Below, piece after piece: positions 25,581-50,300 of a DNA stretch of 53,058 bases. The DNA comes from a virus (taxonomy: Duplodnaviria > Caudoviricetes). Below the pieces are notes generated by a model. The model was not told the DNA's origin. It did no database searches and worked only from the letters and a program-made list of their open reading frames with translations. The position numbers and the translations under genes were made by a program. The DNA lies in the IMG/VR virus record IMGVR_UViG_3300035190_000328, positions 1 to 53,058 of that record; one strand, given 5' to 3'. Position 1 is the stretch's first letter. Each line of letters opens with the position of its first letter.

Positions 25581-25604
25581 TAACTTTTGATTGTTTGTTT
25601 AATT

Positions 25605-25634: not shown

Positions 25635-25644
25635 TATTTAAATT

Positions 25645-28827: not shown

Positions 28828-28837
28828 TTATTAACTT

Positions 28838-28864
28838 AGAGGGAGCTAACAACTCCCTCTTTTT
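28838..28864 (+). terminator. intrinsic terminator
   Basis: AGAGGGAG-CTAACAA-CTCCCTCTTTTT. Confidence 0.85.
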
Positions 28865-28876
28865 AAATTTATAGAT

Positions 28877-30472: not shown

Positions 30473-30714
30473 AAAACTTAATAATATTAATTGTAACAAC
30501 ACTTTTTCTACAATCTTGTAGAATCTGTTGTAATGGTAATCCAAAGCTAACTACAAGGTATATGAATACTTGTATAGACTCTATAGCACCTAACATTGAA
30601 GTACCAGAGATTAAATCTATTACAGATGTAGTTGGAAAAGAAGTGTCTAAATTAGATGATGGTGTGTACATTGTTATATTAAGTAATAATGAACGGGTGA
30701 AAATTATAAACTAA
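30469..30714 (+). CDS. putative lipoprotein
   Basis: Signal peptide ending in a lipobox-like LQSC. Confidence 0.55.
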   Translation: MKNLIILIVTTLFLQSCRICCNGNPKLTTRYMNTCIDSIAPNIEVPEIKSITDVVGKEVSKLDDGVYIVILSNNERVKIIN

Positions 30715-30956
30715 TGGAAACTAAAGAACAATTAATTAAAAATAAAAATATAATTATTCCTGCTTTAAGAGATTGGGCATTAACTTTTGATGGAGAACTT
30801 GATGAAGAAGGTGAAAAAACAGATAAAACTTACAATTATATTACATATTTAGCCAATAATTTAGAAAAAGAACAGTTAACTGAACAAGATGTTAAAGAAA
30901 TTTACTTCCATATTTGGCAAATTGAGCAGGGAGACATAAAATTAAACTTAATATGA
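30714..30956 (+). CDS. hypothetical protein
   Basis: 80 aa. Confidence 0.65.
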   Translation: METKEQLIKNKNIIIPALRDWALTFDGELDEEGEKTDKTYNYITYLANNLEKEQLTEQDVKEIYFHIWQIEQGDIKLNLI

Positions 30957-31123
30957 AAAAACTTATAATACTAGATTATAGTACAGGAATTGCTCATTTA
31001 TACTTATATAGTGAGGAAGTTTGGCCTGATGGAAGTAATTTAGATAAACTTATAGAAGCTTTTGGGCATAATTTAGAAAACTGTGAGTACATGTCTACAG
31101 ATAAAGATTTAATAATTCATTAA
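30953..31123 (+). CDS. hypothetical protein (56 aa, not in ORF track)
   Basis: MKKLIILDYSTGIAHLY...NCEYMSTDKDLIIH, ATGA overlap with the previous gene. Confidence 0.65.
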   Translation: MKKLIILDYSTGIAHLYLYSEEVWPDGSNLDKLIEAFGHNLENCEYMSTDKDLIIH

Positions 31124-31124
31124 C

Positions 31125-31217
31125 ATGAAAACTTTTGCAATAATATTTTTAGTAACATTTGTAATAATTACTATAATAGCTGTAGCAGTATATGAAGATA
31201 GAGATAATTATAATTAA
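31125..31217 (+). CDS. 30-aa membrane peptide
   Basis: MKTFAIIFLVTFVIITIIAVAVYEDRDNYN. Confidence 0.5.
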   Translation: MKTFAIIFLVTFVIITIIAVAVYEDRDNYN

Positions 31218-31220
31218 ATT

Positions 31221-31712
31221 ATGAGATACTATTGTGATAATAAAAGACATTTAGTTTGTGTTCCTTATTCTATTGAGAACCTTCATAAGATGGCTGAAGA
31301 TTTGAAAATCTCTAAGTCTTGGTATCATTCAGGTAGAAAACCTCATTATGATATACCTAAATTAAGAATAAAAGAAATACAAGCTAAATGCACTATTATA
31401 GACTCCAGAGAACTTGTTCATATTATAAAATCAGAAATTTTATTAAACACTAAAGTGTTTATGTTAAAGTCAGAAGAATTAGGTAATTATAAATTTAAAG
31501 TAAAAATATCTAATAACTTTGCTTCCTCAGAGTTTTCTATACATGATATGATAAGTGGGTATTTAGAAAATGAATGGTCTGATACTACATGGATAATAAG
31601 AGATATACTAGAAAATAATTATATTATAGTTTCTCCCACTCATATAAAATATAAACTACCTAATTATTTTAAACATACTATATCACCTTGGTATATACAA
31701 AAATATTATTAA
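31221..31712 (+). CDS. DUF4031-like domain protein
   Basis: HL......LH.MA..L.I...WYH....HYDI. Confidence 0.6.
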   Translation: MRYYCDNKRHLVCVPYSIENLHKMAEDLKISKSWYHSGRKPHYDIPKLRIKEIQAKCTIIDSRELVHIIKSEILLNTKVFMLKSEELGNYKFKVKISNNFASSEFSIHDMISGYLENEWSDTTWIIRDILENNYIIVSPTHIKYKLPNYFKHTISPWYIQKYY

Positions 31713-32857: not shown

Positions 32858-35800
32858 TTATCTAGTCTCATAAGTCTTAGACTTAGCTTGTTCTGTTAAT
32901 TCTAATAACTCATCAATACCTGAGTATCCATTTATCCATTGTGCTGAATAATGGAATTGATTAGCTTTATCTCTAGGATTATTCTCCCCTACTGAAAAAT
33001 CCCTTATTTCATCTGCTGTATTAGACAATGTATTAGTAGCTTGATCTAATACTCCAATTAGAGGTAAAGGGTTCTTTAAAAGCCTTGTAAACTCTGATGG
33101 GGTATAAACAAAACCTACCTCTGCTAATGATTTATTTAAGAACCTATAAGTATTTCTAAGAGCTATATTTTGTTTATAATAAGGTTCATCATCATCTCCT
33201 TCTAATCCTAAAGCAAATATAGCAGTTAAAAGACCTATAATAACCCTTAAATCTCTGAGAGCATAGCCTATTTGCTTTCTTTTAATTTCCATGTAATCTT
33301 CAAAAGATGTTAATTCAGCAGCTTCAGGATTCTTATTAGCCCATTGTTCATATTTATATCTAGCTATTTCTTCATTAACCCTATTTTTATTCCAATAACC
33401 AAATGTTATTAAATCTCCTATTAGATTACCTATTTTAGGTAATACAGTAGTAGTTATATATTCAGATATAGTTTTAGATTGATCTTTGTAAAATTCTTCA
33501 ACTAAAGCTCTATGAGTACCTATATCTAAGTAATCTAAAGATTCATTATATCTTGTAGCACCAAATCTCTCTTGTAAAATACCTGGCATCCATGTTTTAA
33601 ATGTCATTAAAGATTTTAACAGGATATTACTTTGATAAGCAGCTACATCATCTTGGGACATAGTACCATAAGATTTTCTTACAAATTCTTTAATAGCCTC
33701 TCTTAATTGATTAAGTTTATTATAATAATTTTCAGAACCTTGTTTAAATTCACCTTCAGTTATCAAATCATAGGCTGATTTTGCTCCTTCTGGTAAATTT
33801 TTTAAGCTACGCAGTTTCCCTTTATCATCAAATCCATATCTTTTAGCTACCATAATAGCATTAGTACCTGATAACCATTTCTCACCTTGAGCAAAGAATA
33901 TTAGGAATGTGTGAGAACTAAATACTTTATTTAATACATTCTGAGAAGCTAATTGAGCTTTTAAATCATTTTGATTATCTGTATAAGGATTTACTTGGAT
34001 AAGAAAATCTGTAACTTTCTTATCTCTTGACCAAAATTCTTTTTCAGCTTCATAGAAATCAAATCCTAGTTTCTTAGCCATATTAGTAGAAGCCCATTTA
34101 CCTGCTATAGCTGATACTGCTGCTGGTATTACTTTAAAACCAAGCCTCATTTGGATATTCTTGTTATTAGCTGTATTAATAAACTTAGTTAGCCCTTTAC
34201 CTAATTTCTTAGTTACTGAAGGATCTAATTGTATTCCATATACTTTCTTATTAACAGCAGTAGTAAATATCTCTATAGCTCTTATTTTAGAGCTATTATT
34301 AGCATCTACAATAGGTTCTCCAGTAGGAGATTTAACAATCCTACCTAAAGCATCTGTTACCTCAAAATTATCAGCTAATTGTAAACCTACTTTTAATATT
34401 TCAATATCAGCCTCAACAGCCTGCATATTCTTAAAGTTATATACCATATTAGCAAATAGCATATAATCTTTAATTAAATCCTGACTTCTATCTGAATAGT
34501 TTATCTCTCCACTTTTATTTCTAAAAGGATTAATAAAATACTTAGGGATATGATGTCTAACTTCTTTTGTAGAAGGATCTATATCTCCAAATATAGTATC
34601 ACCTTGCCTTACAGCAGCTAAGTAAGTAAATTCATCTTTTAAAGCTTGGGTAGGATCCTCTCTCATTTTATCTAAGAAAGTCTTTCTAATCCAAGGATAA
34701 AAGTTACCTTTAATATCTAAATCTAAATATTCTTTAGATTTCTGATTAAAATCTAATAGATAATTATAAAGAGGTAATAATGCAGTACCATCTATCTTTT
34801 GATAAGCTTCTGAAGTATATTTAGCATAAGCTTCTTGGTTAGGTTGATAGTACCTTGATCTTAATTCATTAGTTTTAGCAGCTTCAAGATTATTCTCCTC
34901 TTCCCATTCTTCCATATATTGCTTAAATAAAGATTCTGCTTTAGAAGGATCTATTTCTCTAATAGGAGAAATATAATTTTCTAAGGACACTTCCCTATTT
35001 TTTTTTAATTCAGCGTACTTCTGTCTGGCATTAGGTTTTAATTCAAAATAGCTATTTATGAAATCTACATTGTTCTTATTAGCTTCTTGGTAAAATTCAG
35101 GAGATAGTCTTGTTATAAAATCCCCTTTATCATTTTTTAATAAATCTATATTTAATCCTTGTTTTTTAACCTCATTGTAAAGCTCTGTAAGCTTATTATT
35201 AAAGATTAAAACTTCATCAAAAGTTTTCTGTTGTTGTTGATTTAATATTCTATCTAAAGCTGTTAAATGAGGTACTCCTACATTTCTAAGAGGTACAAAA
35301 TTATCTAATACTGAGTTACTAGGAAGAATTTTAGGAGTTAAAACATGGTTATCTTCCATTAATTGGGAATTAATAGATTCAAATTGAGCTTCAATCTGCT
35401 CTAAATAAGTTATAATATCATCTTTAAGAGAAGCTATATTCTTTTTAAATTCTTCTTTTTGTTCAGAATCTTCAGCTTTTTCTAATATATATTTAGTTTC
35501 TTCTTTAATTATTTTATCAAAAGCTTTTAATTCTGTATAATAGTTTTGTAAATCTGTTTTAGATAGGTTATTAATATCTTTTAATCCACCTAAACTTAGC
35601 CTTACAGCATCTATTAAATTCTTTAAACCTTTATCTTTCATAGTATCTTCAATAGATTTCTCTAATTCATCTACTAAGAGTTTCATTCTTTCATGCTCTT
35701 TAGAACCTTTTTTTAGCTGCGCTAGTTTAGTTTCTCTATCTTTCTTTAATTGTATCTTAATTCTTAAAGCTTCATTTCTTGCTTTACTATCTGAATATTC

Positions 35801-36649
35801 AAAATGTCCATGAATAGTATCTAAGTGAGAACTAAATTCTTTAGGCACACTATAAGCAGTTTGTATATTTTTACCACCACCTATAATCATAATAGGAATA
35901 GTCCTAGCTTGCCTGTAATTTTCAATCTTAGTTTGATTAGTTAAAGCTTGGGCATAAGAATCTATACCTAATTTAGCAGCTATTTTTCTTTTTCCAGAAA
36001 TACCATCTCTAATAGGAACTAATTGATTATTATAACCTTTAGTATTTAATTGATTCGCATTATAGGTTATAAAGTCAAATATAGCTCCTGTACCATCAGA
36101 ATATTGAGCTACAAGATTAATTGTACCTGCTATATCTGAAAGGTTATCTACAACAATCTGATCAGCTTTAATTAAAGCTTTTTTAGTACTATCTATATCA
36201 TTTTGTTGTTTAATAATAACATCTATAGTATTCTTAGATAACTCATATAATTTATCATAAATATTAGAACTAAATTTTTTAGTTATAAGCTCTTTAACAG
36301 GTTCTATATCTAAAGTATTACCTTCATAGTTTCCTATAAGTACATTGTTAATCAAACCTATAGCTCTGTTAAGCTCATAAGCAGTTTCCTTAGTTGTACT
36401 TTGTTTCTTACCAGTATAATTATTAACTATCTGGCTAACCCTTCTGGCATTTAGCTTAGTATCTGTACCTGAAAGAACATAATCCTGCCCATTGTTAACT
36501 ATGTTAGCATTAACAACTTCAAAATATTTTTCAGTAAACTCCTGATTAGCCTTAGTAGGTAATTGAAGAATAGTGTTTTTAGATGCCTTATAATTAGCAA
36601 TTACATTATAAGCTCTTTCTTTATCTTTAGGATCTATTATACAACTCAT
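32858..36649 (-). CDS. large virion cargo/ejection protein
   Basis: 1263 aa, downstream of the vRNAP; begins MSC; degenerate PD-(D/E)xK domain; FKTWMP..L..RF and C-terminal hydrophobic helix. Confidence 0.75.
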   Translation of the reverse strand: MSCIIDPKDKERAYNVIANYKASKNTILQLPTKANQEFTEKYFEVVNANIVNNGQDYVLSGTDTKLNARRVSQIVNNYTGKKQSTTKETAYELNRAIGLINNVLIGNYEGNTLDIEPVKELITKKFSSNIYDKLYELSKNTIDVIIKQQNDIDSTKKALIKADQIVVDNLSDIAGTINLVAQYSDGTGAIFDFITYNANQLNTKGYNNQLVPIRDGISGKRKIAAKLGIDSYAQALTNQTKIENYRQARTIPIMIIGGGKNIQTAYSVPKEFSSHLDTIHGHFEYSDSKARNEALRIKIQLKKDRETKLAQLKKGSKEHERMKLLVDELEKSIEDTMKDKGLKNLIDAVRLSLGGLKDINNLSKTDLQNYYTELKAFDKIIKEETKYILEKAEDSEQKEEFKKNIASLKDDIITYLEQIEAQFESINSQLMEDNHVLTPKILPSNSVLDNFVPLRNVGVPHLTALDRILNQQQQKTFDEVLIFNNKLTELYNEVKKQGLNIDLLKNDKGDFITRLSPEFYQEANKNNVDFINSYFELKPNARQKYAELKKNREVSLENYISPIREIDPSKAESLFKQYMEEWEEENNLEAAKTNELRSRYYQPNQEAYAKYTSEAYQKIDGTALLPLYNYLLDFNQKSKEYLDLDIKGNFYPWIRKTFLDKMREDPTQALKDEFTYLAAVRQGDTIFGDIDPSTKEVRHHIPKYFINPFRNKSGEINYSDRSQDLIKDYMLFANMVYNFKNMQAVEADIEILKVGLQLADNFEVTDALGRIVKSPTGEPIVDANNSSKIRAIEIFTTAVNKKVYGIQLDPSVTKKLGKGLTKFINTANNKNIQMRLGFKVIPAAVSAIAGKWASTNMAKKLGFDFYEAEKEFWSRDKKVTDFLIQVNPYTDNQNDLKAQLASQNVLNKVFSSHTFLIFFAQGEKWLSGTNAIMVAKRYGFDDKGKLRSLKNLPEGAKSAYDLITEGEFKQGSENYYNKLNQLREAIKEFVRKSYGTMSQDDVAAYQSNILLKSLMTFKTWMPGILQERFGATRYNESLDYLDIGTHRALVEEFYKDQSKTISEYITTTVLPKIGNLIGDLITFGYWNKNRVNEEIARYKYEQWANKNPEAAELTSFEDYMEIKRKQIGYALRDLRVIIGLLTAIFALGLEGDDDEPYYKQNIALRNTYRFLNKSLAEVGFVYTPSEFTRLLKNPLPLIGVLDQATNTLSNTADEIRDFSVGENNPRDKANQFHYSAQWINGYSGIDELLELTEQAKSKTYETR

Positions 36650-36651
36650 AG

Positions 36652-37314
36652 CTATTTGCAGGTAGAGTCTATAGACCCTTTATTAATAGTTTGTAATAGT
36701 GTTATTTGTTGGTCTTTATTTAACCAATCTAAATTATTGTAATCTTCTTTAAAAGAATTTAAAGCATCTTCATAAGTAGGATATATTTCTCCTGCTACTT
36801 CAAACTGATTTTCTCCTAATTGGTTAATACTATTACCTACAGTAGTTACAGGTAAATCTATTTCTACACTATAATTATTAGCAAAATCTTTAGTAACAGT
36901 AAATACTTCAGGAAATGCAGATTCTAAGTTTTTCATAGTATCTACATTAACCTGTAATTTCCTAGTATTATAAGCTTTCTTTTCTTCTTTATCAAACTCA
37001 ATACCTCTGGTTATAGTATATTTACCTGTTTTATTAAATACAGGTTCATATTTATGAATTATACCTACTAGGTTATCTAGTACTTCTTGTAAAGTAGTTC
37101 CATTATTAATAAGTTCTGCAACTTGTTTAGCTTGATTATTAGCTTTAACCTGCATATATTTAGAATACTCAGTAATAGTTGGATAAACATAGTTAATACT
37201 ATCTTTACCTGTTCTAAACTTAGTATAAGCTATAACTCCATCTTCTGCTACTTTAGTACCAGCCCATAAAGCTAAACTTCTAAACAATGGTAATCCTTTA
37301 TTTACACAACTCAT
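36652..37314 (-). CDS. small cargo-module protein
   Basis: 220 aa, MSC...TCK, coupled to both neighbours. Confidence 0.75.
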   Translation of the reverse strand: MSCVNKGLPLFRSLALWAGTKVAEDGVIAYTKFRTGKDSINYVYPTITEYSKYMQVKANNQAKQVAELINNGTTLQEVLDNLVGIIHKYEPVFNKTGKYTITRGIEFDKEEKKAYNTRKLQVNVDTMKNLESAFPEVFTVTKDFANNYSVEIDLPVTTVGNSINQLGENQFEVAGEIYPTYEDALNSFKEDYNNLDWLNKDQQITLLQTINKGSIDSTCK

Positions 37315-40300
37315 TATAAACAGTCTTTAACAAATGTAGTAAAATCTTCTGAATCTATAGTAGTATCTTGTTGAGCAGCTCTTTGTTTTAAATGATCTAT
37401 AAGAGCTTCATCATTAACATAGTTAGTAGCTATTTCAGGTTTATTAGCCTTAATCCAATCTAAAGTTTCAGTAACTTTTTGCATATCTACTTCTAAAACA
37501 GGTTTAGCTGCTACAGCAGTTATCTCAGAATCTAAAGTAGATTTATTATTAGTAGAAATCATTACTAACCTATTAGAAGGTCTTGAAACTGCTACATATA
37601 AGCTTTTGTTCTTATTAACTGTAGAACCACCATTAGTAGAACCTAGTATATTATCTTCAAAAACATATACATTATTATAAGTAGAACCTTGAGCTTTATG
37701 AGAGGTTATAGCATACCCATATTGAAGATTAGCAAAATTAGCTTTTAAAGCAAATGCTAATTGTTTATCAGTTTGGAATAAACTAGCCACATCTTTATTA
37801 AATTTCTCTTTACTACTTTCTGCAATAGCTAGTATTTTTACTCCGTAAGCTACCATTTTTAAATCTGGTAGTATTTCACCTTCTTCATTTAATAACTCTA
37901 ATTCTACTACATTATAGTTAAAATTAAAAGATCTACTGCCCATTTTAGCTGAGAATACACTAATACTTCCTGTAAAGTTATTTATGGCTTTTAAAGAATG
38001 TATTATGTAATCATCAGAATTATATATTACAGGTACAGGAACTCCTCCTAAATCTGTAGTATATGTATCATAAGCAGTTATAAATTCTCCAACATTAAAT
38101 TGGTTTTTAGCTTTTTCTCCCCAAAGTTTCTCTCTAATCTTAACATTAAGGTTTTTAACACTTAAAGGAGAACTATGGTTCTCATTATTAAATGTCACAG
38201 CTTTAACATACTCAGGGTTATTATTAGCTTCTTTAATATCTTTAACCATACTATCTAAAGCTTCATCTACATTATTAGTAAATAGTAATGTAGATTGGCT
38301 AATAGGATCTATTTTATTAAATCTAAAACCTTCAGGTATAGCTATTAATTTAGGAGTTTTACTCTCTATATTTCTAGCTACTAAAGTTCCAGCACCTATA
38401 ATAGGGCTATTAGCAGCTTGTCTCATTTTTTCAACTAAAGTATATTGATTTTTAATATCAAATACAGGACTATCTACATCCTCACCTACAGGAGGTAATT
38501 GTGCATTATCTCCCATAAATATAACTTTAGCTGAAGGTTTTTTAAGCTCCATAATTTCTTTATAAATATTTGGAGAAATCATTGAAGCCTCATCTACTAT
38601 AATTAAATCTAATTGTTTAATAGGTACTTTACCTTGCTGTCTAGCATATAAATCTGGAGTAAACTCTCCTGTAGATTCATTAAGTTTAATAGCTAGTGCT
38701 GATGCTACAGTAAAAGCATTCTTTTTACCTATAGATTTACCTAAAACTTTTTTAGCTTTATGTGCAACAGTAATACCTCCTATTCTACCAGTATAACCTT
38801 CAATAGTTTTTTTGATAATAGTAGTTTTACCTGTACCACCTCTACCTATTAGAGTAAATTCTGTAGCAGGAGATCTTAAAAACCCATCTAATAAATCAAG
38901 AGCTTGTTGTTGCCCTTCATTAGCAAAAACTCCTGGGAATAATTCATATTTATTCTTTTTAACTCCTTCCATATTTGTTGAAGGTAAAGTTACATAATTT
39001 TCACCTTCTATAATAGGAGTATAAGCATGATAGTAATATTTATCTCCAATAGCTCCTGTAGGTAAGTATTGTTTACCTTGGAATGGGAAGAATACTCCAT
39101 CTATGACAGCATGAGACCTTGTTAGTAAGTATACTTCTTTCTTACTATTACCTACTAATATTATAGGGCCTTTTTGATATATCTTATCACTATCTAAAGG
39201 TTGTCCTGCTTGATAACCATCTCTTGAAACATATTTTCTTAATCTTTTTTCTACTATACCATTTTGTTGTAGAAACTGTTCTACAAATTTATGAGGTATT
39301 ACAGGTTCCATATTCTTTAAAGCCTGTAAAGACATATCTATATATTCCTTTGGTAGTAACTTCTGATAACTAATAGGGCTATCAGAAATACCTGATTGTA
39401 ACAATTGAGCTATAATAAGTTTCTTAGCAAAAGGTTGAGTTACAGGATTATCATATAATTCCTTAAATCCTTCTGCTAATATTTCTTGTTGTACAGGGTT
39501 AACCCTTTGAGATACTAATTTAATATTATAAGTACTTCTAGGTTTAATATCCCCTTTGTCTTTACCTTCTTCTGGTAATAGAGGTATCATTTCCTGTAAG
39601 AATTTATTATCAGGAAACTTATCTTTTAAATCTAATAACTCAGTCATTAACTCACTAGTTCTTAGTATACTAGAGTATTCACTTAAAGTTTTACCTGAAT
39701 CTAAAGGAGATGTTATTAATCCAAAAGTTGCTAACTCCCTATCAGCTCTTTCTAATATAGTAGTTAAGTTATTAGCTCCTGAGAACCTATATAAATCATA
39801 GATAATATCCATAATTTCAGGCCCTCTAAGGTATTTATCAAAACTCACAAACTGCATACCTGAAGACCAAATCTTATCAGCTTCCATAGCAGTATTTTTA
39901 AGTTCTTTTAATAGGGTATCTTCAAATAGGTTAGGTAAGTTTTTAAAAGATTTATCTTCTAAAACATCATAATACATCTTTCTTTTAATCCAAGAATCTA
40001 CAAGTGTTTTACCAGCTTGTTTAGTATCTTGATTAGAAACCTGTTGTATCTTATTTAATTGAGAACCTGCTCTATTATATAACTCAAAGCTGTATAGTAC
40101 CTGAACTTGTTGTTTTAACTCATCTAAAGACATAGTATTCATATCTTTAGACATATTATCTTTAAGTTCTGCTTTAGTTATGTAGTTAACAAGAGTTTTT
40201 CCTTCTTTAAGTTCATCATAGTATTCAGCTAAATCTAATGCTTCACCATCTTCTATTTCTTGCTGAGTAAGATCTACTTCACTTCTAAGCTTAGACATCT

Positions 40301-43300
40301 TAGATATTAAACTATTTATTATTTTATAACCTTTCTCTTTACCTTTAAAGTTTAAGATTGAGTTATTTTTATCTAGTAAACTAGTATATTCTCTAATTAT
40401 AGGTTGGTTAAGAAAGTAAATAACCTCATCAAGAGGTATTCTCTGTCTTAATAATATATTAACTACACCAAAAGTATTAAAACTTACATTAGTGTAAGTA
40501 ATATAATCATTACCTATTTTAGAAACATCTACAGCAGCAGATATAAATTGTTTTAATATAGCTGAAATCTTTTGTTTATTATCTATATCATATACTGAAT
40601 CCATAGGATATTCAGATAGTTTTTGTATACTATCAAAATATAGTGTATATTCTGGACTATAGTATGATATATCTGCTTGTTGAAATAGAGCATGTGAAGT
40701 TGTAGCTAGTGCAGCAGGGCCTACTAATTGTTTAAACTTCAATAGTTTATTTCTAGTAGCTACTATCATCATAGGAGATAATATCTTAGTATACTCATAA
40801 GATTTAATGCCCCCTAAACTTTGTCCAGTAGCGGCTATTACTTCTAAAGCTACTTTCTTTAAATCATCAGTACTATCTGAAGTTAATAGGTTTTCTTTAG
40901 CTTCTTCTGAAGTAACTACTTGAGCTATAATATCTATAACCTCATTCTCAGCTATATACTGATCATAATTTCTTAAAAGATTATTTTGTTCTTTTAGCTG
41001 AAACAATAATTTCTGGATTACAGGATTATTATCCATTTCCTTAAATTTATCTTCAGCATATTTAATATTTTCTAAAGAAACTTCATCATCTTCTACTTGC
41101 TCATCTAAAAACTCTTTGTAATCTTTAAATTCTTCTTTATAAGGTTTTAATAAACTCTTAGTAACCTTAATATCAATTAATAAACTAGCTTTAGATTGTA
41201 ATACTTTAACTTGGTTTCTAACAGTATAATAATGTGGAACATAAGTTGTAAGTTTATCCACGTCAAAGTCAGAACCTGCTTTAATAGTTATACCATTAGG
41301 TACTACAATTACATTACCTAATGTAGGTGCTAGAAATTCCTTAACTAAAACAGCTTCAATAGCATTTTGACCTTGGGTAGGTATCCTATAAGGCACTAAA
41401 TTCCATTCTTCTCTAAACTTAGGTAATACCTCTTTATTAAATTTGTTTAACTTATCCTCAAAAGTATCTCCTTCTAATTCTAATACTAAAGGCATTAGTT
41501 TTTGAGGTAAAGCTATTTTAACTTCAGCATAAGAAACTCCATATCCTGATTCAGCTTTCTCATAGAATTTAAGGGAATTATCTAAATCAGGAACCTGAAT
41601 AAACATTTCCCCTGGCATATCTCTTTTAACAACTTCTCTGTTATAAAAAGACATTAGGTTATTCTCTAATTTAACCTTCTCAGCCATTGCATCAGCTCTA
41701 ATTACATCTTGTGATAGAATAGCTTGTAATTGTTCTTTAAAGGTCTCAGAAGTCTTCCTTTGAAGCATAGCTTCAGTTACTTCTTTCTTTAATTTATCTT
41801 TATCTGTAAATAAATAAACCTTGTTTTCTCCAATACCTTCTATTGTAATAGATAGATTATCTAAGAATTTACTAAACTTTTGAGCAGTAATATCATTTAA
41901 CAAATTATTATAGGTATCAATTACTTCTTTAGTAACTTTAACATCACCATTAGCATAGTGTAATTCAGGATCTTTAACAATATCAACAAAATCTAATTTA
42001 GACATCTGAGTACCTAAAGTTACTCTCTTATGTTCTTCAGGAGAAGTTTCTAAATGCTCCCCCATAAAAGAATAATTAATTCTTTGTGTTACATTGTATT
42101 CATCAGAATCAATATCTTGAGGTTCATTTATATTATTACCTTTAGAGCCTGAAGCAAATACACCTAAACCTATTTGAGCTTTCTGCATTTTAGCAGCCAT
42201 CTCAACTAACTTAGGCATACTATATTGCATACTTCTTGGAAGTACAGGCATTACTGCCATTTTATATAAATCTGTTATATAATACCCAGGAGTATAATCT
42301 TCTCCATAAGCAGGGCCAGCATAACCATATTTCTTAACTGCTAAAGCAAATGTTTCATATATACCCTTAGCAGGATATACATCTGTTAAGGTATTTTCAT
42401 AATCATATAAAGATTGAAAATCTTCATTCCATTGACCTAACCTTAACATCATACTTCTAATAAAATCTAAAGTACCTATACCAGAAGCATCTGCTAAATC
42501 TCCTTTTTCATTACTATCAATAGCTCCTTTTATAAACTCTTGATAAGTACCTGTTATATCTTTAAATACAATTGTACTTTCAAAACCATCTTCCATTTTA
42601 CCATCTGCTCTTTTATATAAAGCATTGATAGATTGATTTAAAGAAGGGCTATTAATAGCAGGTTTCTTAGATGAGGTAAACAAGGTAAACCTCTTAATAG
42701 GATCTTTAAAGTTATTTAAAGGGCCTGTAAATAAGTTAGATTGCTCATAAACACTTTGCCAATGCTTAATCATATAGGTTCTAAAGTTATCTTCAGATTC
42801 CTTATCTAAATGATTAGTATCATATTTAGCAACCTTATCTTTAAAAGCAGCTACTTCATTAGTTATAAATTCTTCTACTTTAGATTTAACTAAAGCATAA
42901 TCTTCTAGATTTTCTCTTGAGTAATCTAAAGGATTTTTCTCAAGAACCATAACTCCTTCAAAAGTTACTAAATGTCCACTAGGAGTAGCCTTATCTCTAG
43001 TACTTTGAGGTAAATTAGCTACATATTGTATTTCATTAAATACAGCTTGCACTAAAGAATCTATAGAAGGTTCTTCAGGCATTTCTAATTGCCAAGCTAA
43101 TTCTACACCCCTATCAGCAGATGGTAATACAGGATATATATTATTCATAGTAGCCCTGTAGTGAAGCATAGCCTGAGCAGCTTCATCCATATCTGCATAA
43201 TCTGTAGGTAATCCTAAAGAAGATTTAGCTTGTATCATATTAACAAGCTTTCTGTTAGATTTAATCCATAGAGAAGATTCTGTAGGGAAATTACCTAAAT

Positions 43301-46300
43301 AATCAGCATTACCTTGTTTAATAATACTATCTCCTATAGCATAAGCTGTAGGTAAACTTAAAGCATATCTTTTAGCATTCTTAGAATCTAATACATTTAA
43401 ATCTGTAAATTCATCATTATATAATGTAGCTTGTTCAGCTAAAGAATTAATTTCTTTATTTATAGATAATCCATTTTTATCAAAAAAATAATCTACAGGA
43501 GTATCTTTAGTTAATCCTCTTAAAGCAGCATCTATCTTAGATAAGTCTCCTTTTTTAGAATATTTACTATAGTTTTCACTATCAGGAAATCCTAGTAAAT
43601 CTAATAATTCTTGATTAGTAGATTTATCTAAAGCTTCTTTTAATTTATCTAATTGAATTAATAACCTACCTTCTGGAGTTAGTTTAACTAAAGGAGACCT
43701 TGATAAATTAGCTCTCCAAATATCTTTAACTTTATTAATATTTCTTTCCTTTTCAAATATAATTTTAAAAGGCTCTTCTCCAGATTTTATATCATTAAAC
43801 TGCATAACAAGAAATTCTTGTTTAGCTTTAGCAAATGATTGTACAAATTTTAATTGTAGATTTAATTCATCTTTTGTTTGAGGAATTTTATCTAATTTAA
43901 ACCATTCAATTAGTTTATTAATCTCAGGTCTTTTCTCAGCATATTTTTTAAGTTCTGTTAATTGACTTTCTAAAGTAAAGTTATTAGCTAATTTAGCATG
44001 TAAAGCATGCAGGGTTTTAACATAATCTACAGCTTGAGGTAATCCTACACTATTTAAAACTACTTTACCTTCCTGATTAATAACAGGTAAAGCTGATATA
44101 ATAAGTTTAACAAGACTATCATCTAAATCCTCAACTGACGTTTTGTCAGAATCTTTAATACCTAATCTATCTTTTACTTCAGTTTCCTCAATTTCTTCTT
44201 CAGGAAGACTGACAAATTGTCCTATAAATTCTTTATGCTTTACAAATACTTTCTGTAAATCCTCTTTACTAAAAGTATCTTTAGCTACAAATTGTAACAT
44301 TCTAGGCCCTACAAAGCTTATATAAGAATCTAAATCCTTAAATACACCTTGTCCTATTAATTTATCTAATTCAGAAGATAAGCTATTTAAACCTACGGTT
44401 TGGTTGAGTTTACTTATAATCAAAGCATGGTTAGAAGCTACTGTCATATTAATAGCATCTGGGCTTAAACTATAAGCATCATTACCTGATTGAGGTATTA
44501 TATTACTACCTTGATAATAACCTGATAATATCTTATCATAAAAATCATTTAATGTATTACCACTAAATAACTTCTTAATAAAATTCCATATTCTTTCAAA
44601 TATACTTAACTCTTCAGGACTAGTTTGTTTAGTATTAGCATAGGTTCTAAAATCTTCAGCTAATAATTCTTCTTCTAAGTATTCTGTAGATTTATCACCA
44701 TATAGATCCCTTAATTCAGCAATTCTATCTTGATAATCTTCTCTATTCCTAATCCCTTTTAATAAAGTTTCTCTTTCTTGAGGAGTAGTAAACAACCTAA
44801 ATACTCTATGAAAAGCTTCATGGTATTCAGTACCTTCAGGACTTTGAGTACTAACAAGTATTTTACCATCTTTAGTAAAGGCTCCAAAAGCTTTACTTTG
44901 AATAAGTTTATTTACTACAGATACATAGTTATTTACATAATCAGAACCAAATAAATTAGTAAGATTTTGTTGTATTTGATCTATATTTCTAAGTATAGGA
45001 GAACCTATAGTAGATAATTGAATAGAACCTGTATCTCTAGCTTCATCTACAGTAACTTCATTCCATGTATTACCATATTCATCAGTAACAACTTTAGCAT
45101 TATAACCTTGTTTCTTCAAAACATTTGCTATAGTGTTTTCATAGAAATTATAAATAGGTTTTAAAGCTGCTAATCCTTCAGGCCCATTAACTCTTTCAAG
45201 CTCTGCTTTAAGTTGAGTTATTTCTATATCAAATTCTGTTTCTTTATCTTTTTTTAATTTTTCAACAGTTTCTTTAGAACCAGATTCCATATAAGAATAC
45301 CCTGTACTTCCATTGGCTTCTTTTGTTTTAAGAATATAATCTCCATTAATAAGTTGTGAACTTTGTCTGGTTAATCCCGCCTCATTTAAACTAACTACAC
45401 TATACTGTATTTTATCTCTTTCTATTTTTTTATTTTCAAGATCTTTAATCCTATCTTCTTTTTCTTTCTTAAACTCTTCTAAAGTACCATGCCCCTCAAC
45501 TTTACTAGCTGTATTACCTGTTGGAAATAATACTTTCTCATATCCTTTTTTAGCACTATCTTGTACAATAGATTTAACAAAGAATGTTACCCAAGCATTA
45601 TCTTTATTTAGGAGTTGTAAGAATTTATTTTGAGGAGATTTAATATCTTTAATTTTATATAAAGAATCAAATGCTTTAAAACTTTCCTCACTACCTACTT
45701 CATAATTAGTTTTTTCTACCCAACTATAATAAGCATCCCATTTAGCTTCCTGTAAATCTTCTCCTAAATTACTGGTAAATCTATCTTGACCTTCTAAACT
45801 ACTTTTATTTATTAAATCAATCCTATCTCTACCTTTCTGAAATAAATCAGATTGTACTTCTAGTATTCTACGGGTTTTAGGATTTGAATATTTAGCTTTT
45901 CTATATTCTTCTTCTGATATAATCTCTCCATTTTTCTTATGTTGAAAACCTTTACCTAAAGAATATTCTTGTGTATATTTATTTCCAGCAATTTCAAAAT
46001 CTTTTTCTTTATTTTGAATAGACATAGCTTGTTTAACAAAACTAGCTTCATCACTTCTAAACCAACCTATACCTTGATCCGTGCTGAAAGCACCATGTCC
46101 TTTAATAGAAGGAGTAATATCTGGAGTTTTTATTTCATTCTCTGTATAGTTAGTACCCCCAGGTACAGTTAGATTAGAATAATGACTTGTAGGTTTTTGT
46201 AATTCAGTAATTAAATAAGTTTCAGCTTCTTTTTCAGTTTTAAAAGATTTTAAAGGCATTGTAGTATAAATATCTACAATAGACCATCTTTTTTCTCCAT

Positions 46301-46829
46301 TATATTCAGTTTCTCTAATATTTAAATCTTTATTACCTCCTCTAGTAACTTCAGTTTGTACTGTATAACTATAATTAGTAATAATATCTAATATAAGATC
46401 TTCTACAGTATCATAATCCTTACTATCTATAAGATCTTTAATAATAAAAGCTTGTTGTTTACCTGCTATATTAGATACTTCAGATATAAACTTATCTTTA
46501 TTAGTTTTAGCAAATCTCTTGAATATCTGCTTACCTTTCTCTGTATTTAAGAAAGTAACAGACCTTAGTACATAATTAATAGCAAATTCTTGAGCTACAG
46601 GAACTAACATAAAAGCTGATTCACTATCAGGTTTTACATTATCTAAAGGATTACCTGTAACTTCTTGTTTAGTAAAGTCTTCTATAGGTTTATTACCATA
46701 AACTTCATCTAATATAGACATTCCCTCATCTAATAGCCAAGCTTTAAATGATTCTTCAGGCATACCTGTTTCAGGAATAATAGCCTTTATTTTAGGATTA
46801 TTCCCTACATACTTTACTATACAAGCCAT
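37314..46829 (-). CDS. virion-delivered RNA polymerase polyprotein with a zincin and a C-terminal SF1 (RecD-like) helicase
   Basis: YRIPTQ and GSDFDVDKL (41256-41270) crAss vRNAP motifs; HEAFH; GRGGTGKT, DEASM, GD.AQLPPV, HKAQGST and YVAVSR. Confidence 0.9.
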   Translation of the reverse strand: MACIVKYVGNNPKIKAIIPETGMPEESFKAWLLDEGMSILDEVYGNKPIEDFTKQEVTGNPLDNVKPDSESAFMLVPVAQEFAINYVLRSVTFLNTEKGKQIFKRFAKTNKDKFISEVSNIAGKQQAFIIKDLIDSKDYDTVEDLILDIITNYSYTVQTEVTRGGNKDLNIRETEYNGEKRWSIVDIYTTMPLKSFKTEKEAETYLITELQKPTSHYSNLTVPGGTNYTENEIKTPDITPSIKGHGAFSTDQGIGWFRSDEASFVKQAMSIQNKEKDFEIAGNKYTQEYSLGKGFQHKKNGEIISEEEYRKAKYSNPKTRRILEVQSDLFQKGRDRIDLINKSSLEGQDRFTSNLGEDLQEAKWDAYYSWVEKTNYEVGSEESFKAFDSLYKIKDIKSPQNKFLQLLNKDNAWVTFFVKSIVQDSAKKGYEKVLFPTGNTASKVEGHGTLEEFKKEKEDRIKDLENKKIERDKIQYSVVSLNEAGLTRQSSQLINGDYILKTKEANGSTGYSYMESGSKETVEKLKKDKETEFDIEITQLKAELERVNGPEGLAALKPIYNFYENTIANVLKKQGYNAKVVTDEYGNTWNEVTVDEARDTGSIQLSTIGSPILRNIDQIQQNLTNLFGSDYVNNYVSVVNKLIQSKAFGAFTKDGKILVSTQSPEGTEYHEAFHRVFRLFTTPQERETLLKGIRNREDYQDRIAELRDLYGDKSTEYLEEELLAEDFRTYANTKQTSPEELSIFERIWNFIKKLFSGNTLNDFYDKILSGYYQGSNIIPQSGNDAYSLSPDAINMTVASNHALIISKLNQTVGLNSLSSELDKLIGQGVFKDLDSYISFVGPRMLQFVAKDTFSKEDLQKVFVKHKEFIGQFVSLPEEEIEETEVKDRLGIKDSDKTSVEDLDDSLVKLIISALPVINQEGKVVLNSVGLPQAVDYVKTLHALHAKLANNFTLESQLTELKKYAEKRPEINKLIEWFKLDKIPQTKDELNLQLKFVQSFAKAKQEFLVMQFNDIKSGEEPFKIIFEKERNINKVKDIWRANLSRSPLVKLTPEGRLLIQLDKLKEALDKSTNQELLDLLGFPDSENYSKYSKKGDLSKIDAALRGLTKDTPVDYFFDKNGLSINKEINSLAEQATLYNDEFTDLNVLDSKNAKRYALSLPTAYAIGDSIIKQGNADYLGNFPTESSLWIKSNRKLVNMIQAKSSLGLPTDYADMDEAAQAMLHYRATMNNIYPVLPSADRGVELAWQLEMPEEPSIDSLVQAVFNEIQYVANLPQSTRDKATPSGHLVTFEGVMVLEKNPLDYSRENLEDYALVKSKVEEFITNEVAAFKDKVAKYDTNHLDKESEDNFRTYMIKHWQSVYEQSNLFTGPLNNFKDPIKRFTLFTSSKKPAINSPSLNQSINALYKRADGKMEDGFESTIVFKDITGTYQEFIKGAIDSNEKGDLADASGIGTLDFIRSMMLRLGQWNEDFQSLYDYENTLTDVYPAKGIYETFALAVKKYGYAGPAYGEDYTPGYYITDLYKMAVMPVLPRSMQYSMPKLVEMAAKMQKAQIGLGVFASGSKGNNINEPQDIDSDEYNVTQRINYSFMGEHLETSPEEHKRVTLGTQMSKLDFVDIVKDPELHYANGDVKVTKEVIDTYNNLLNDITAQKFSKFLDNLSITIEGIGENKVYLFTDKDKLKKEVTEAMLQRKTSETFKEQLQAILSQDVIRADAMAEKVKLENNLMSFYNREVVKRDMPGEMFIQVPDLDNSLKFYEKAESGYGVSYAEVKIALPQKLMPLVLELEGDTFEDKLNKFNKEVLPKFREEWNLVPYRIPTQGQNAIEAVLVKEFLAPTLGNVIVVPNGITIKAGSDFDVDKLTTYVPHYYTVRNQVKVLQSKASLLIDIKVTKSLLKPYKEEFKDYKEFLDEQVEDDEVSLENIKYAEDKFKEMDNNPVIQKLLFQLKEQNNLLRNYDQYIAENEVIDIIAQVVTSEEAKENLLTSDSTDDLKKVALEVIAATGQSLGGIKSYEYTKILSPMMIVATRNKLLKFKQLVGPAALATTSHALFQQADISYYSPEYTLYFDSIQKLSEYPMDSVYDIDNKQKISAILKQFISAAVDVSKIGNDYITYTNVSFNTFGVVNILLRQRIPLDEVIYFLNQPIIREYTSLLDKNNSILNFKGKEKGYKIINSLISKMSKLRSEVDLTQQEIEDGEALDLAEYYDELKEGKTLVNYITKAELKDNMSKDMNTMSLDELKQQVQVLYSFELYNRAGSQLNKIQQVSNQDTKQAGKTLVDSWIKRKMYYDVLEDKSFKNLPNLFEDTLLKELKNTAMEADKIWSSGMQFVSFDKYLRGPEIMDIIYDLYRFSGANNLTTILERADRELATFGLITSPLDSGKTLSEYSSILRTSELMTELLDLKDKFPDNKFLQEMIPLLPEEGKDKGDIKPRSTYNIKLVSQRVNPVQQEILAEGFKELYDNPVTQPFAKKLIIAQLLQSGISDSPISYQKLLPKEYIDMSLQALKNMEPVIPHKFVEQFLQQNGIVEKRLRKYVSRDGYQAGQPLDSDKIYQKGPIILVGNSKKEVYLLTRSHAVIDGVFFPFQGKQYLPTGAIGDKYYYHAYTPIIEGENYVTLPSTNMEGVKKNKYELFPGVFANEGQQQALDLLDGFLRSPATEFTLIGRGGTGKTTIIKKTIEGYTGRIGGITVAHKAKKVLGKSIGKKNAFTVASALAIKLNESTGEFTPDLYARQQGKVPIKQLDLIIVDEASMISPNIYKEIMELKKPSAKVIFMGDNAQLPPVGEDVDSPVFDIKNQYTLVEKMRQAANSPIIGAGTLVARNIESKTPKLIAIPEGFRFNKIDPISQSTLLFTNNVDEALDSMVKDIKEANNNPEYVKAVTFNNENHSSPLSVKNLNVKIREKLWGEKAKNQFNVGEFITAYDTYTTDLGGVPVPVIYNSDDYIIHSLKAINNFTGSISVFSAKMGSRSFNFNYNVVELELLNEEGEILPDLKMVAYGVKILAIAESSKEKFNKDVASLFQTDKQLAFALKANFANLQYGYAITSHKAQGSTYNNVYVFEDNILGSTNGGSTVNKNKSLYVAVSRPSNRLVMISTNNKSTLDSEITAVAAKPVLEVDMQKVTETLDWIKANKPEIATNYVNDEALIDHLKQRAAQQDTTIDSEDFTTFVKDCL

Positions 46830-47308
46830 TATTTAAGGTATTGTTGAATAAATAATTGATTAAACTTAGTAGGTTCTAAGTCTTTAGTAGTATCTACTAA
46901 TCCTGACCAATAACCTATAGCATGTCTTTGAATCTTAATAAACTTCTGTAAGAACTCAAAGGTAGTTAATTCCTCATCTAATACAGAATTAGCTACTAAT
47001 TCATAAGCATCTCTTACTACAATCATTAAATTAGAAGCTTTTTGAATTATATCTATCAAAGATGTAAACTCTGGTTTAGTAGTATCCAATGTAGGAAACT
47101 CTACACCAGCTTGCATATCTAATAGATAAGATTGTAACTTTTGTGTATGTAAAATCTCATCATTAGCTTCTTTTATAAAGTATTGATAAGCAATACTATA
47201 ACCATTCTGAGCAGCATAGTTAGCTGCATAGTTAAAGAATAAATGTGTTGTATATTCAGCTTTTATTAAAGCTGCAAATGCTTTTACTGTACTTTCTTTT
47301 ATGAACAT
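46829..47308 (-). CDS. ferritin-like protein (degenerate ferroxidase site)
   Basis: 159 aa four-helix pattern: IKAE, GY....YF..EA.DE..H..KL..YL.D and TFEFLQ.FI..Q. Confidence 0.8.
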   Translation of the reverse strand: MFIKESTVKAFAALIKAEYTTHLFFNYAANYAAQNGYSIAYQYFIKEANDEILHTQKLQSYLLDMQAGVEFPTLDTTKPEFTSLIDIIQKASNLMIVVRDAYELVANSVLDEELTTFEFLQKFIKIQRHAIGYWSGLVDTTKDLEPTKFNQLFIQQYLK

Positions 47309-50300
47309 ATCCTGTCAAAATCTGTATTGGTTTCTAATAAGTTATCCACAAAGTTAGGATATTTTTCATCAAATTGTTTACTTAACTGAGAAATAACCTG
47401 ATTGCCTCTACTCTTAGCTCTGGGATTAACTTTATTCTTTAAAGCTTTATACTCAGAAAGTAATGGATTAGATACTTGAGATGCTTCTGCTTTAGTTTCT
47501 AAAGCAGCTAGTTCTGCATCATATTTAGTATTTAAAACACCATCTGTAAAATAACCAATATTTAAACTAGATGGTAATTGTGTTTTTGCAACATCTTCTA
47601 TAAAGTTTTCATCTAAATAGTTTTCTAATTTATCTTGTAAGGTTTTTCCATTGGTATTTTCAAGAGTAGTTCTATCAATTGCTCCTAAAAATAAATCTAA
47701 ATATCCTCTGTGAGGACTTTTACCTTCAGCTAAATCAAATAATATTTGTTTTAATTGTTCTTTATTAACAATACCTGTAGTAGAACTTACTCCAGCAGGC
47801 ATTAATAAATTATCATTATAAATATTTATAGCGTTCCCTTTTGAAGTGATGTGTGTTATAAATAATAAATTATCAGGTAAATTATTTATTCTTCTTTCTA
47901 TTTCAGCTTTTTTAGCTTCTGTACTACCTTCAGTAGAAGTACCTTTAGTAGCTTCTGTTATTAGCTTATCATACCTATCATATATTTCATTGTAGGCATC
48001 TAATTCAGCTTGCTTTAGTTTTTTTAATTCTTCTAATCTTTTATCTCTTTGTTTTTGTTCTACTTGTTTTTGTCTAACTTCTTGTATTTCTTGTGAGGAT
48101 AGTCCTCTTTCGTCTAAAACTATAGGAGCTAAAATATTTAAACCTTCTTTTTCAATTATTTCATTGTAATTATTTTCTATCCCCTCTAATACCTTATCTT
48201 TATTAATTACGCCATCAACTTTATAATCATCTATGTTAGGTATAATCTTTTTAACTTCTTCTTCTTCTGCTGCTCTGTATTCAGCTATTTGTTTTTTAAC
48301 ACTTTCTTTATTATTTACAGAAGTTTCTTTTATAAAATTTAATACAGATAAAGCTCTTTTATTAATTTCATCTTCATAGTTACCTATAGTTTTATTTTCT
48401 CCTTGAAGCTTCTTAAATTCTTCAAAAGATAATAAAGAATGTTGATATTCATGTTCTATTACAAAATTTTCAAATTCTTGGTAACTATTAAAAATATTTT
48501 CAGGTAAAGGAATAGATTTAGAACCATCTTTTTGAGTTCTTGAATTTACCCAAGCTTTTTCTGTAAATTTTTGTTTTAAAAAATTCCTATTTAAGCTAAT
48601 AGTATTAGTTTTTCTATCATAATTAGCTGCCCCTATTTCTCCAGTCTGTGTAATTATGTTAGCAGTATTTACTATTTTAATGCCTTTATAGGGTTTTTCT
48701 ATAACTTTCTCTCCTTTAGCAATAGGACTATTTAAATTAAAAGTTAAATACCTATTTATATTTTCACCATCAAGATTAGCTTTTACTAATAAAGGAATTT
48801 CAGATTTAGTTCTATTTTCTTCACTTAGTAAATAATGTTTATATGAAGGATAAGACTTAGTTATAAGTTTATCTCCTTGCATAGTAACAGCTTCATAAGA
48901 TGTTTTAGAGTTTAAAAGCTTGTTATTGATATTATATACCTTATTAGCTAAAGATTGTAATATTGTATCTTTAGATTCTTCTAGAGAATCTACATTATTA
49001 TAAAAATTGCCCCCTATATTAACAGCACCTGCTTTAGTAAAATATAAAGAATAAGAAGGATATTTAGCATTTTGTCCAACATTAACTAATTCTTCTAATA
49101 CATCTCTATAAGATTTACCTTTAATAGTTTCTTTAGAGCCACTTAGAACACCTTTAATTAACTCAAAAGCTGCCAAAGCATCTGTTGGACTTAAAGTATT
49201 TTTAAATGTGCTTAGAGGGTCTCCTATTGCATTATAAGTATATACATTACCTGGAGTAGCTTGAATCTGGGATTCTCCTACCCTAATAATTCCAGGAGTT
49301 TTTTCAGTATATAATACAAGTTCTATAGTATTAATATCTAAACCTGTAGCTGTATTAGCAGGTAAGCTTTTTAATTCTCCTTGTACACCTTTACTTCTTC
49401 CTGTAATAGGTAATAAAGTCTTAGTACCTTTAGCATTATTAGCTAATAAAGTTTGTTGAAAAGCATTATATTGACTTCTAGCTAAAGCTAAAGCTTGTTT
49501 TTGTTTAGTTTCATTATCTTTAAATTCAGGATAAGAAAACCCATCCCAAGAACTTTCATGTAATGGGGTATATACAGGTAATCCACTATCATCTAATATA
49601 GGATTACCTTCATTATCTACTACTACAGCTATAGTAGTTAATCTATTACCTTTAAGTGCCTCAGAATCTGTAAGATTATCTTGTACTTGAGAAGCCCCTA
49701 CATAGAAATCTACACCTTGTAAAGGATTATCAGGAGTTATTACTAACAACTTATGATTTTCTATTAAGTCTTTTAAAGAGGTATTATTAATAAAAGCATA
49801 CCATCTTTTAGAAGATTCAGAGTTTTGAGCAGTTTGATCTCCAGATGTTTTACCATAGCCTATCCATATAGGGGGTTTAGGAGATTGGTTATAAGAACTT
49901 ATCTGTTCAGCAGTTAATAAAACAGGAGTTTGTATAATATCTGTAACATCAACCCCACCTTCAAATGTTTCTCCTGAAATTCTATCAGGTTGTTCATTAG
50001 CTTGTTTAGCTTTTTCTCTAGCTAGATAAAATTCTGATAACCTACCAAAAGCAGCTTCATCTCGTAAAGCTTCTAAATCAGGATTACTAGCTATAAACTC
50101 AGGTGTTAAAGGAATTTGTTTACCTGAATGTGTAGTTAATACAGGTTTCCCATCTATAGTCTGTAAAGTATAAGCTTCTTCATTAGCCTTACTATAAAGA
50201 TATACAGGTTCTTCTATAGTATCTAAAGATGTTACATCATAATAATCTGATAATTTAGCTACTAGTGAATCATTAATTCTTTCATCAAAAGATCCTTTAT

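Follow-up and report, generated by a model that had tools for sequence, protein, structure and literature searches.

How crass-type virion RNA polymerases start on a double-stranded genome is an open problem. According to the available text of bioRxiv 10.1101/2020.03.07.982082, the enzyme of Cellulophaga phage phi14:2 is efficient on single-stranded or denatured DNA but transcribes duplex DNA poorly, and QDE-1, a eukaryotic relative, depends on the helicase QDE-3 and on RPA when it works on DNA. A natural helicase-bearing version of such a polymerase provides a direct experimental handle on this problem. Here we analyzed the IMG/VR virus record IMGVR_UViG_3300035190_000328, a stretch of 53,058 bases (the window), in which a gene on the minus strand (37314..46829, stop codon 37314-37316) encodes a protein of 3171 amino acids (aa) that combines a zincin-like region, a virion RNA polymerase, a helicase of superfamily 1 (SF1), type SF1B, and a C-terminal tail. 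What, then, does a helicase do on a polymerase of this kind? Our analyses establish that the open reading frame (ORF) is a single genuine gene of a crAss-like phage from freshwater (lake water), with a probable virion cargo protein as its product, and they allow the possible roles of the helicase to be weighed.

A virion polymerase and a helicase on one chain

An initial annotation of the window had placed a polymerase-helicase fusion at 37314..41420. The two domains do lie in one ORF and the lower bound was right, but this range holds only aa 1804-3171 (the last 1369 codons) and the ORF is about 5.4 kb longer. The polymerase core spans aa 1400-2300 (39930..42632; this and all further features of the gene are on the minus strand) and was assigned by tblastn and by an AlphaFold model compared with known structures in Foldseek. 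The segment matched 'putative RNA polymerase' genes in 110 crass-type phage records (tblastn, E<=1e-3), with E values of 2e-12 for the 2180-aa structural protein of phi14:2 and 1e-14 for the 'putative RNA polymerase' of crAss001, and a search of 1.84 billion cluster representatives returned 1164 homologues at E<=1e-3. The model, based on 48 homologues, has a mean predicted local distance difference test score (pLDDT) of 84.9 and a predicted template-modelling score (pTM) of 0.87. Its sole PDB match at E<=0.001 was 6VR4 (6vr4_A; E 7.6e-26, query TM-score 0.73 over the 901-aa segment), which is the phi14:2 virion RNA polymerase gp66, the same 2180-aa protein that is named 'gp077' in GenBank KC821624. 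The next matches were plant RDR2 and fungal QDE-1 at E ~1e-2, with QDE-1 among ranks 3-12. A phmmer search of PDB sequences with the polymerase did not retrieve 6VR4, while the fold search did, and PHROGs gave no polymerase family for the 3171-aa protein.

The DFDVD catalytic loop to which the initial annotation had drawn attention lies at aa 1854-1858 (41256-41270) and was located by motif search. Across the 48 aligned homologues R1815, I1816, P1817 and D1858 never vary, D1854 and D1856 reach at least 90% conservation, and a RIPTQG stretch upstream of the loop is conserved as well. The protein shares with phi14:2 gp66 the DFDxD loop, the fold, sequence homology and a place between two giant virion genes, and in both proteins the cysteines are confined to position 3 and the penultimate residue. 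The giant-gene block that contains the polymerase also lies on the strand opposite the replication module, as expected for a gp66-type enzyme. Since phi14:2 gp076-078 are annotated as structural proteins by tandem mass spectrometry (KC821624) and crAss001 gp47, gp49 and gp50 were detected in virions, as given in the available text of PMC10172136, we infer by analogy that the 3171-aa protein is probably packaged too.

In phi14:2 the polymerase protein lacks a helicase and a zincin-bearing protein is encoded by a separate gene (bioRxiv 10.1101/2020.03.07.982082), whereas here a zincin-like region with the motif HEAFH, the polymerase and the helicase form one multi-enzyme chain. The HEAFH motif, a zincin-like HExxH found by motif search, is at aa 670-674 (44808..44822); it had been mentioned in the initial annotation and belongs to the same ORF, although it falls outside the range proposed there. 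Among 159 proteins with BLAST similarity to aa 600-1000, H-E-x-x-H is kept in 137 of the 152 that cover the motif, although the 3171-aa protein gave no Pfam peptidase or LPD match at E<=0.1.

The helicase core, with motifs Q, I, II, III, IV, V and VI, lies at 37539..38972 and is defined by Pfam, PHROG, structural modelling and conservation. Pfam matches were AAA_30 (E 4.3e-18), AAA_19 (1.8e-15) and UvrD_C_2 (1.1e-06), and phrog_325 'Dda-like helicase' matched aa 2620-3096 at E 2.7e-68. Among sequences of solved structures, Dda (3upu) and RecD2 (3e1s) were recovered at E 1.2e-12 and 6e-07, respectively. An AlphaFold model of aa 2561-3171, built with 67 sequences, has an overall pLDDT of 84.1, with values above 90 in the core and 52-76 in the last 55 residues, and contains a long β-hairpin at model residues 380-420. 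The best Foldseek match of this model was T4 Dda (3upu_A, E 1.4e-26, target TM-score 0.74), followed by a deep-sea Dda-like helicase, RecD2 (E 6e-19), RecD of RecBCD and Pif1. The helicase is therefore of RecD/Dda (SF1B) type, in agreement with the first assignment. It has the same motif set as its best fold matches, T4 Dda (3UPU) and Deinococcus RecD2 (3GPL), at about 22% identity. Those two act in replication and repair as free-standing proteins some 440-715 aa long, whereas the helicase described here is a module within a virion protein.

Motif searches placed the Walker A sequence GTGKT at aa 2665 (38823-38837), DEASM at aa 2746 (38580-38594), GDNAQLPPV at aa 2773 (38487-38513), SHKAQG at aa 3043 (37686-37703) and VAVSR at aa 3079 (37581-37595). 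To follow these motifs in other fusions we used a helicase-side search of proteins of 1744-5550 aa, in which 7998 candidates were scored and 224 proteins matched the helicase at E<=1e-5; conservation and domain counts refer to the 119 listed of these 224, besides the protein studied here. Seventeen catalytic-motif positions are kept in 115-119 of the 119 fused homologues, so the full SF1 set initially described for this ORF holds. Ten of the positions are invariant in all 119, comprising the Q-motif glutamine (Q2640), the Walker A glycines and lysine (G2662, G2665, G2667 and K2668), the motif II Asp-Glu pair (D2746 and E2747), the motif III aspartate and glutamine (D2774 and Q2777), and R2803; R3083 is kept in 118 of the 119. 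The helicase of the metagenomic homologue P0088 is interrupted by an intein that contains homing-endonuclease domains and sits immediately ahead of Walker A (profile position 45-46). Inteins characteristically occupy indispensable sites. The pattern of conservation supports a helicase that is intact and under selection and, because the ATPase site is so strongly constrained, a module that should work. Its 5'-to-3' direction of translocation and unwinding would be expected solely from membership of the SF1B family.

That the fusion might be an assembly chimera had been raised at the outset as a possible objection. Both junctions of the module are bridged without any difference by contigs of three studies (X2, X3 and X4) that are separate from that of X1, the possible source run of the window: the junction at nt 39014 by X2 record 10 (38935-39321) and X4 record 25 (38931-39097), and that at nt 37463 by X2 record 6 (37401-37576) and X3 record 14 (37236-37521). 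The fusion is not an assembly chimera. The identical protein sequence is also recorded on a 95,499-base contig, and the stretch 37200-39300 occurs in lake-water and freshwater metagenome runs (22 entries from 21 studies), with no RNA run listed among the sequencing runs that contain it. A decayed or purely structural helicase remnant, or an artefact of assembly, is hardly credible as an account of the module: we found nothing in its support, and it is contradicted by the retention of all motif residues, by the pLDDT above 90 in the core, by the in-frame bridging of both junctions in independent contigs and by the more than 200 homologous fusions.

How the module sits in the chain was revealed by the closest relative, P0241, a protein of 2134 aa with a polymerase 58% identical to ours and no helicase. 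The two align in three pieces, aa 1-85, aa 551-2605 (54% identity) and aa 3123-3171, so that P0241 lacks exactly aa 86-550 and aa 2606-3122. The first piece, the N-terminal 85 aa (46575..46829), begins MAC and carries Cys3, one of the two cysteines in the protein. The segment missing after it, aa 86-550 (45180..46574), has no family match (no Pfam hit at E<=0.01), and among the 119 listed carriers it is resembled only by P0020 (36% identity). The C-terminal body of the polymerase protein, aa 2301-2605 (39015..39929), is common to both. A tether at aa 2561-2622 (38964..39149), predicted to be disordered by its pLDDT of 28-37 in the AlphaFold model, precedes the helicase. The second missing segment is the helicase module itself (aa 2606-3122, 37464..39014), with the bridged junctions at its two edges. 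Beyond it lies the conserved C-terminal tail (aa 3123-3171, 37317..37463), which ends KDCL and is 39% identical to the last 51 aa of P0241. Because P0241 is without the module yet retains the tail, the fusion is better described as an internal insertion ahead of a conserved tail.

Spread and origin of the helicase module

A survey of domain architectures, proposed in the initial annotation, revealed the fusion to be recurrent, with at least 224 long metagenomic proteins besides annotated gut phages such as cr50_1 and cr118_1; the same survey revealed it to be optional, as detailed below. All 119 listed carriers match the helicase, at 32-65% identity. The polymerase segment is matched by 107 of them in BLASTP and the HExxH region by 27, and 104 have a DFDxD string. 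The 12 without a polymerase BLAST match are P0020, P0027, P0070-P0074, P0085, P0090, P0096, P0098 and P0101, and in seven of these the DFDxD string is still present. The helicase lies downstream of the polymerase in every listed carrier except P0093 and P0102, and it is followed by a median of 66 residues (120 or fewer in 86 of 120 carriers). Of 80 loci fetched from IMG/VR, 79 yielded a helicase ORF. Ten of the ORFs are longer than 1200 aa, and all but one of these ten hold the polymerase too; in L030, which is among the nine, polymerase homology extends into the neighboring upstream ORF as well. Further searches for the locus with the helicase, the polymerase segment or a two-sequence alignment produced no confirmed relatives among viral or metagenome contigs.

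Giant ORFs annotated as 'DNA helicase' are also present in gut Suoliviridae: cr50_1 (MT774375, 4774 aa), cr118_1 (MT774379, coding sequence 16381..31221) and cr124_1 (NC_055899, coding sequence 22..7902). Like our protein, those of cr50_1 and cr118_1 combine polymerase homology and a C-terminal SF1 helicase in one coding sequence and have a near-terminal cysteine. The coding sequence of cr124_1 holds a DFDxD region, its helicase being known from the annotation only. These annotations are automatic, and we found no discussion of the ORFs in the literature searched. The fusion of a crass-phage polymerase with a helicase was likewise not found there, although it may be shown in Yutin et al. 2021, either in the domain map of the transcription block (Fig. 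3) or in the supplements; the architecture is apparently a so far undiscussed variant of the crass virion polymerase.

The origin of the module was examined with two trees, both of them quick FastTree runs with long branches and hence indicative. In the polymerase tree (174 segments) our protein groups with P0241 (support 100) and then with P0297 and P0298 (support 100), all three of which lack the helicase. In the helicase tree (245 domains) it falls in a clade of 140 (support 97) that comprises 103 long and 37 short sequences, many of the short ones coming from short contigs and possibly being fragments. This clade lies within a group of 231 (support 100), apart from which stand the free-standing helicases of gut crass phages, and the cr50_1 and cr118_1 helicases are on long branches outside the 231. 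Our helicase is 58-65% identical to those of P0002-P0020, while their polymerase parts are just 22-30% identical to ours. High identity in the helicase, low identity in the polymerase and the tree placement are together most simply explained if the module was acquired by recombination from a distant polymerase-helicase gene, and a gain by this lineage through recombination with the polymerase-helicase gene of another phage is most likely the history behind these sequence comparisons. Repeated loss of the helicase is possible as an alternative. We conclude that the polymerase-helicase architecture is real, widespread and recurrent, yet optional and portable.

Candidate roles of the helicase at the start of infection

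By analogy with the phi14:2 and crAss001 homologues, the whole chain would travel in the capsid and enter the cell before the DNA or together with it; crAss001 cargo is thought to go through the tail in a partly unfolded state, before the DNA does (PMC10172136, available text). If the chain is packed and ejected, the helicase would be present next to the polymerase from the start of infection, as an ATP-driven 5'-to-3' single-strand translocase beside the polymerase at time zero. Very probably the phage brings along a ready-made SF1B helicase that is in the cell as soon as infection begins. Our preferred reading, which we hold tentatively and consider quite possible, is that the helicase acts together with the polymerase on the entering genome. 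Moving 5'-to-3' on the non-template strand, the helicase would travel in the same direction as a polymerase that reads the template 3'-to-5', and it would expose single-stranded template or clear bound proteins for a polymerase that is poor on duplex DNA. Opening of the duplex for a single-strand-preferring polymerase, as proposed in the initial annotation, is a plausible mechanism, and an attractive one because the phi14:2 enzyme, as the initial annotation had stated and the preprint text (bioRxiv 10.1101/2020.03.07.982082) confirms, prefers single-stranded templates and because QDE-1 needs a helicase. QDE-1 is a structural relative of the crAss polymerases, though unlike the helicase described here QDE-3 is not fused to it. 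QDE-3, which like QDE-1 belongs to Neurospora RNA silencing, is a separate protein of the RecQ helicase family.

Several observations weigh against such a coupling. The experimentally studied polymerase proteins of phi14:2 and crAss001 have no helicase match. On the polymerase side, where the count covers the closest 150 of the 1164 homologues, only four carry the helicase (our protein, P0316, P0340 and P0364), and a word-index search gave six of 56. The four nearest polymerases all lack it: P0241 (58% identical), P0297 (40%), P0298 (39%) and P0299 (30%). On the polymerase tree the scatter of the nine helicase carriers calls for eight or more gains or losses, which is no improvement on shuffled labels. 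The polymerase bodies joined to the module are only about 25% identical to each other, and with polymerase bodies that can barely be aligned and a disordered tether between the domains a tight co-evolved interface is unlikely.

The same patchy, portable distribution is what would be expected if the helicase merely rides on the polymerase protein for injection and then acts alone, an alternative that we regard as a serious rival, though a somewhat less likely one. Its release, perhaps through the zincin-like protease or a cut within the disordered tether ahead of it, would let it jump-start replication or recombination, or protect the genome by stripping host nucleases or DNA-binding defence proteins. 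Consistent with this, relatives carry unrelated enzymes in the same region of the protein, namely ART-PolyVal, NADAR, 2OG-Fe(II) oxygenase, DUF7831 and LPD23 domains (marker domains were seen in P0005, P0041 and P0096), and these lie on either side of the helicase, in line with a general cargo slot. Toward its C-terminus the polymerase protein has a slot in which enzymes for injection are exchanged among very distant phages.

Independent action is also in keeping with the closest free-standing relatives from known crassviruses, since they belong to the replication block, and a figure legend in Yutin et al. 2021 (PMC7886860) counts 'SF1' among the replication genes. All six Intestiviridae examined encode the related helicase in that block, as a free gene of about 480 aa. 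The replication-block SF1 helicases (such as Carjivirus communis gp14 and crAss002 gp67) are about 28% identical to our helicase (E 2e-25) and differ from it in being separate genes of about 480 aa that adjoin UDG or DNA polymerase and in forming a distinct clade; our helicase is not of this free-standing type. In the 53-kb record, which is about 44% complete, so that a second copy may lie outside it, the sole Dda-like match is the one inside the polymerase ORF and the replication block has no SF1 helicase; in the complete cr50_1 and cr118_1 genomes, too, tblastn found an SF1 helicase in one place each. With no SF1 helicase of its own in the replication block, the phage may use the fused copy as its replication or recombination helicase.

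An enzyme that travels as cargo would also match the theme of polyvalent proteins (Iyer, Burroughs, Anand, de Souza, Aravind 2017, PMC5512222), in which disparate enzyme domains are injected on one chain. In the available text of that paper, zincin-like peptidases are proposed to process these chains and helicases to act on the entering DNA. Our protein resembles polyvalent proteins in placing several unrelated enzyme domains on one chain, with virion delivery likely from its homologues, and the ART-PolyVal and LPD23 domains of its relatives are polyvalent families. The helicases described in that text are of superfamily 2 (DarB-type methylase-helicase) and UvrD-like, and the words crAss, SF1, RecD and Dda are absent from the main text of PMC5512222.

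Free action of a passenger accounts less well for the company the helicase keeps. None of 69 free-standing IMG/VR helicases has a polymerase within 10 kb, the clade to which our helicase belongs is found overwhelmingly in polymerase proteins (103 long against 37 short sequences among the 140), the usual place right before a short C-terminal tail suggests more than random hitch-hiking, and there is no known cleavage site.

A motor for DNA entry, the second role suggested in the initial annotation, has also to be considered, in which the ejected helicase would grip the leading end of the genome and reel it in by ATP hydrolysis. The intact ATPase site and the expected entry of the protein before or with the DNA (PMC10172136, available text) are in its favor. 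SF1B enzymes, however, track single strands, as in the single-stranded-DNA-bound Dda and RecD2 structures among the fold matches, while the genome enters as a duplex; most related phages enter without the module; and nothing in the sequence suggests a membrane or portal anchor, although no search was aimed at one. We regard this role as very unlikely.

Terminal cysteines and the cargo gene block

Cysteine is rare in these proteins, at 0.064% in the 120 long helicase carriers compared with 1.5% in the replication proteins of the window, and its placement follows a pattern. In the window the 1765-aa protein has a cysteine only at position 1764, the 3171-aa protein only at 3 and 3170 (codon at nt 37320-37322), a 220-aa protein only at 3 and 219, and a 1263-aa protein only at 3. 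The pattern is thus complementary in gene order: C-terminal only, then both ends, then N-terminal only. In phi14:2 (L011) the upstream protein ends ...TIC, with the only cysteine of its last 681 residues, the polymerase has cysteines at 3 and 2179 of 2180, and the downstream protein has one at 3 only. In crAss001 (L093) gp47 has a cysteine at 2339 of 2341, gp50, which holds the DFDxD string, at 5, 1334 and 2404 of 2412, and gp49 at 5 only. The polymerase and downstream protein of IMG/VR loci L013, L014, L043 and L068 show the same pattern, which was also noted for L041, L048 and L054, and in the downstream proteins the cysteine is only at position 3-6. Among the closest 150 polymerase homologues, 135 have a cysteine within the last seven residues and 122 have one or two cysteines in total.

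In the listed helicase carriers the tail itself is not conserved as a sequence, as aa 3100-3171 gave BLAST matches at E<=1e-5 in none of the 119. From sequence comparison the C-terminal feature that the carriers have in common thus appears to be the terminal cysteine and not the sequence around it, and the helicase was inserted in such a way that the cysteine-bearing tail remained terminal. The complementary cysteines suggest head-to-tail disulfide coupling of the cargo proteins, possibly for ordered ejection, and structural disulfides are present in the crAss001 virion. Metal bridging and attachment to a capsid component are alternatives to disulfide coupling. If the terminal cysteines do mark disulfide coupling, they would provide a concrete, testable model of how several megadaltons of cargo protein are ejected in order, a problem that the crAss001 structure paper, in its available text, left open (PMC10172136). 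The pattern was not found in the literature searched, nor by a word search of key crass papers.

Coupled cargo and coupled enzymes could be combined in one joint reading, which as a whole we consider unlikely. The proteins would form a disulfide train in the order 1765-aa protein -S-S- polymerase-helicase -S-S- 220-aa protein -S-S- 1263-aa protein, would be threaded through the tail in gene order and would be released by reduction in the cytoplasm; insertion of the helicase just upstream of the coupling tail would have preserved the disulfide link. Freed at the entering DNA end, a 5'-to-3' helicase and a polymerase reading 3'-to-5' would be two motors on opposite strands, as in RecB and RecD. 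If true, such a pair could start transcription on duplex DNA without further help, which would account for the onset of infection with enzymes that in vitro read single strands only.

A natural variant of the junction between two cargo proteins was seen in the IMG/VR loci L051 and L054, which are 98.7% identical. L051 has a single ORF of 5329 aa for the polymerase-helicase and the cargo protein that follows it. About 200 residues with an HExxH motif stand there in place of the final 8 residues of the polymerase-helicase and the initial 109 of its neighbor, and both junction cysteines are lost with the replaced part. Simple read-through as an explanation of this ORF was rejected, since a segment of about 200 aa is replaced.

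The gene belongs to a block of giant genes on the minus strand (32858-52596) with products of 1765, 159, 3171, 220 and 1263 aa. The upstream giant gene (47299..52596) encodes the 1765-aa protein, whose sole cysteine is its penultimate residue and which has no Pfam or PHROG match. Between the two giant genes a ferritin-like protein of 159 aa without cysteine is encoded at 46829..47308 (PF00210, E 1.2e-07). At the equivalent position of locus L013, wedged between the two largest cargo genes, is an ORF of 165 aa. Downstream, the start of the 220-aa gene (36652..37314) overlaps the polymerase stop codon by one base and is followed by the 1263-aa gene (32858..36649); all four neighbors are on the minus strand. 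The replication module is on the plus strand (5952-22695) and includes a family A DNA polymerase, SNF2-type and DnaB-like helicases, a Sak4/AAA_24 ATPase, a primase and an exonuclease. The completeness given above for the record is a CheckV estimate, and its GC content is about 28% throughout.

A candidate RNA gene and a tRNA gene were also detected on the plus strand of the window. At 2949-3329 there is a match to tmRNA (Rfam RF00023) that covers the full model with 54.3 bits against a gathering score of 47 (E 1.2e-18) and has no ARAGORN call; a phage-borne tmRNA-like gene would be unusual. A tRNA-Arg with anticodon TCT at 8873-8946 was called by Rfam and ARAGORN alike.

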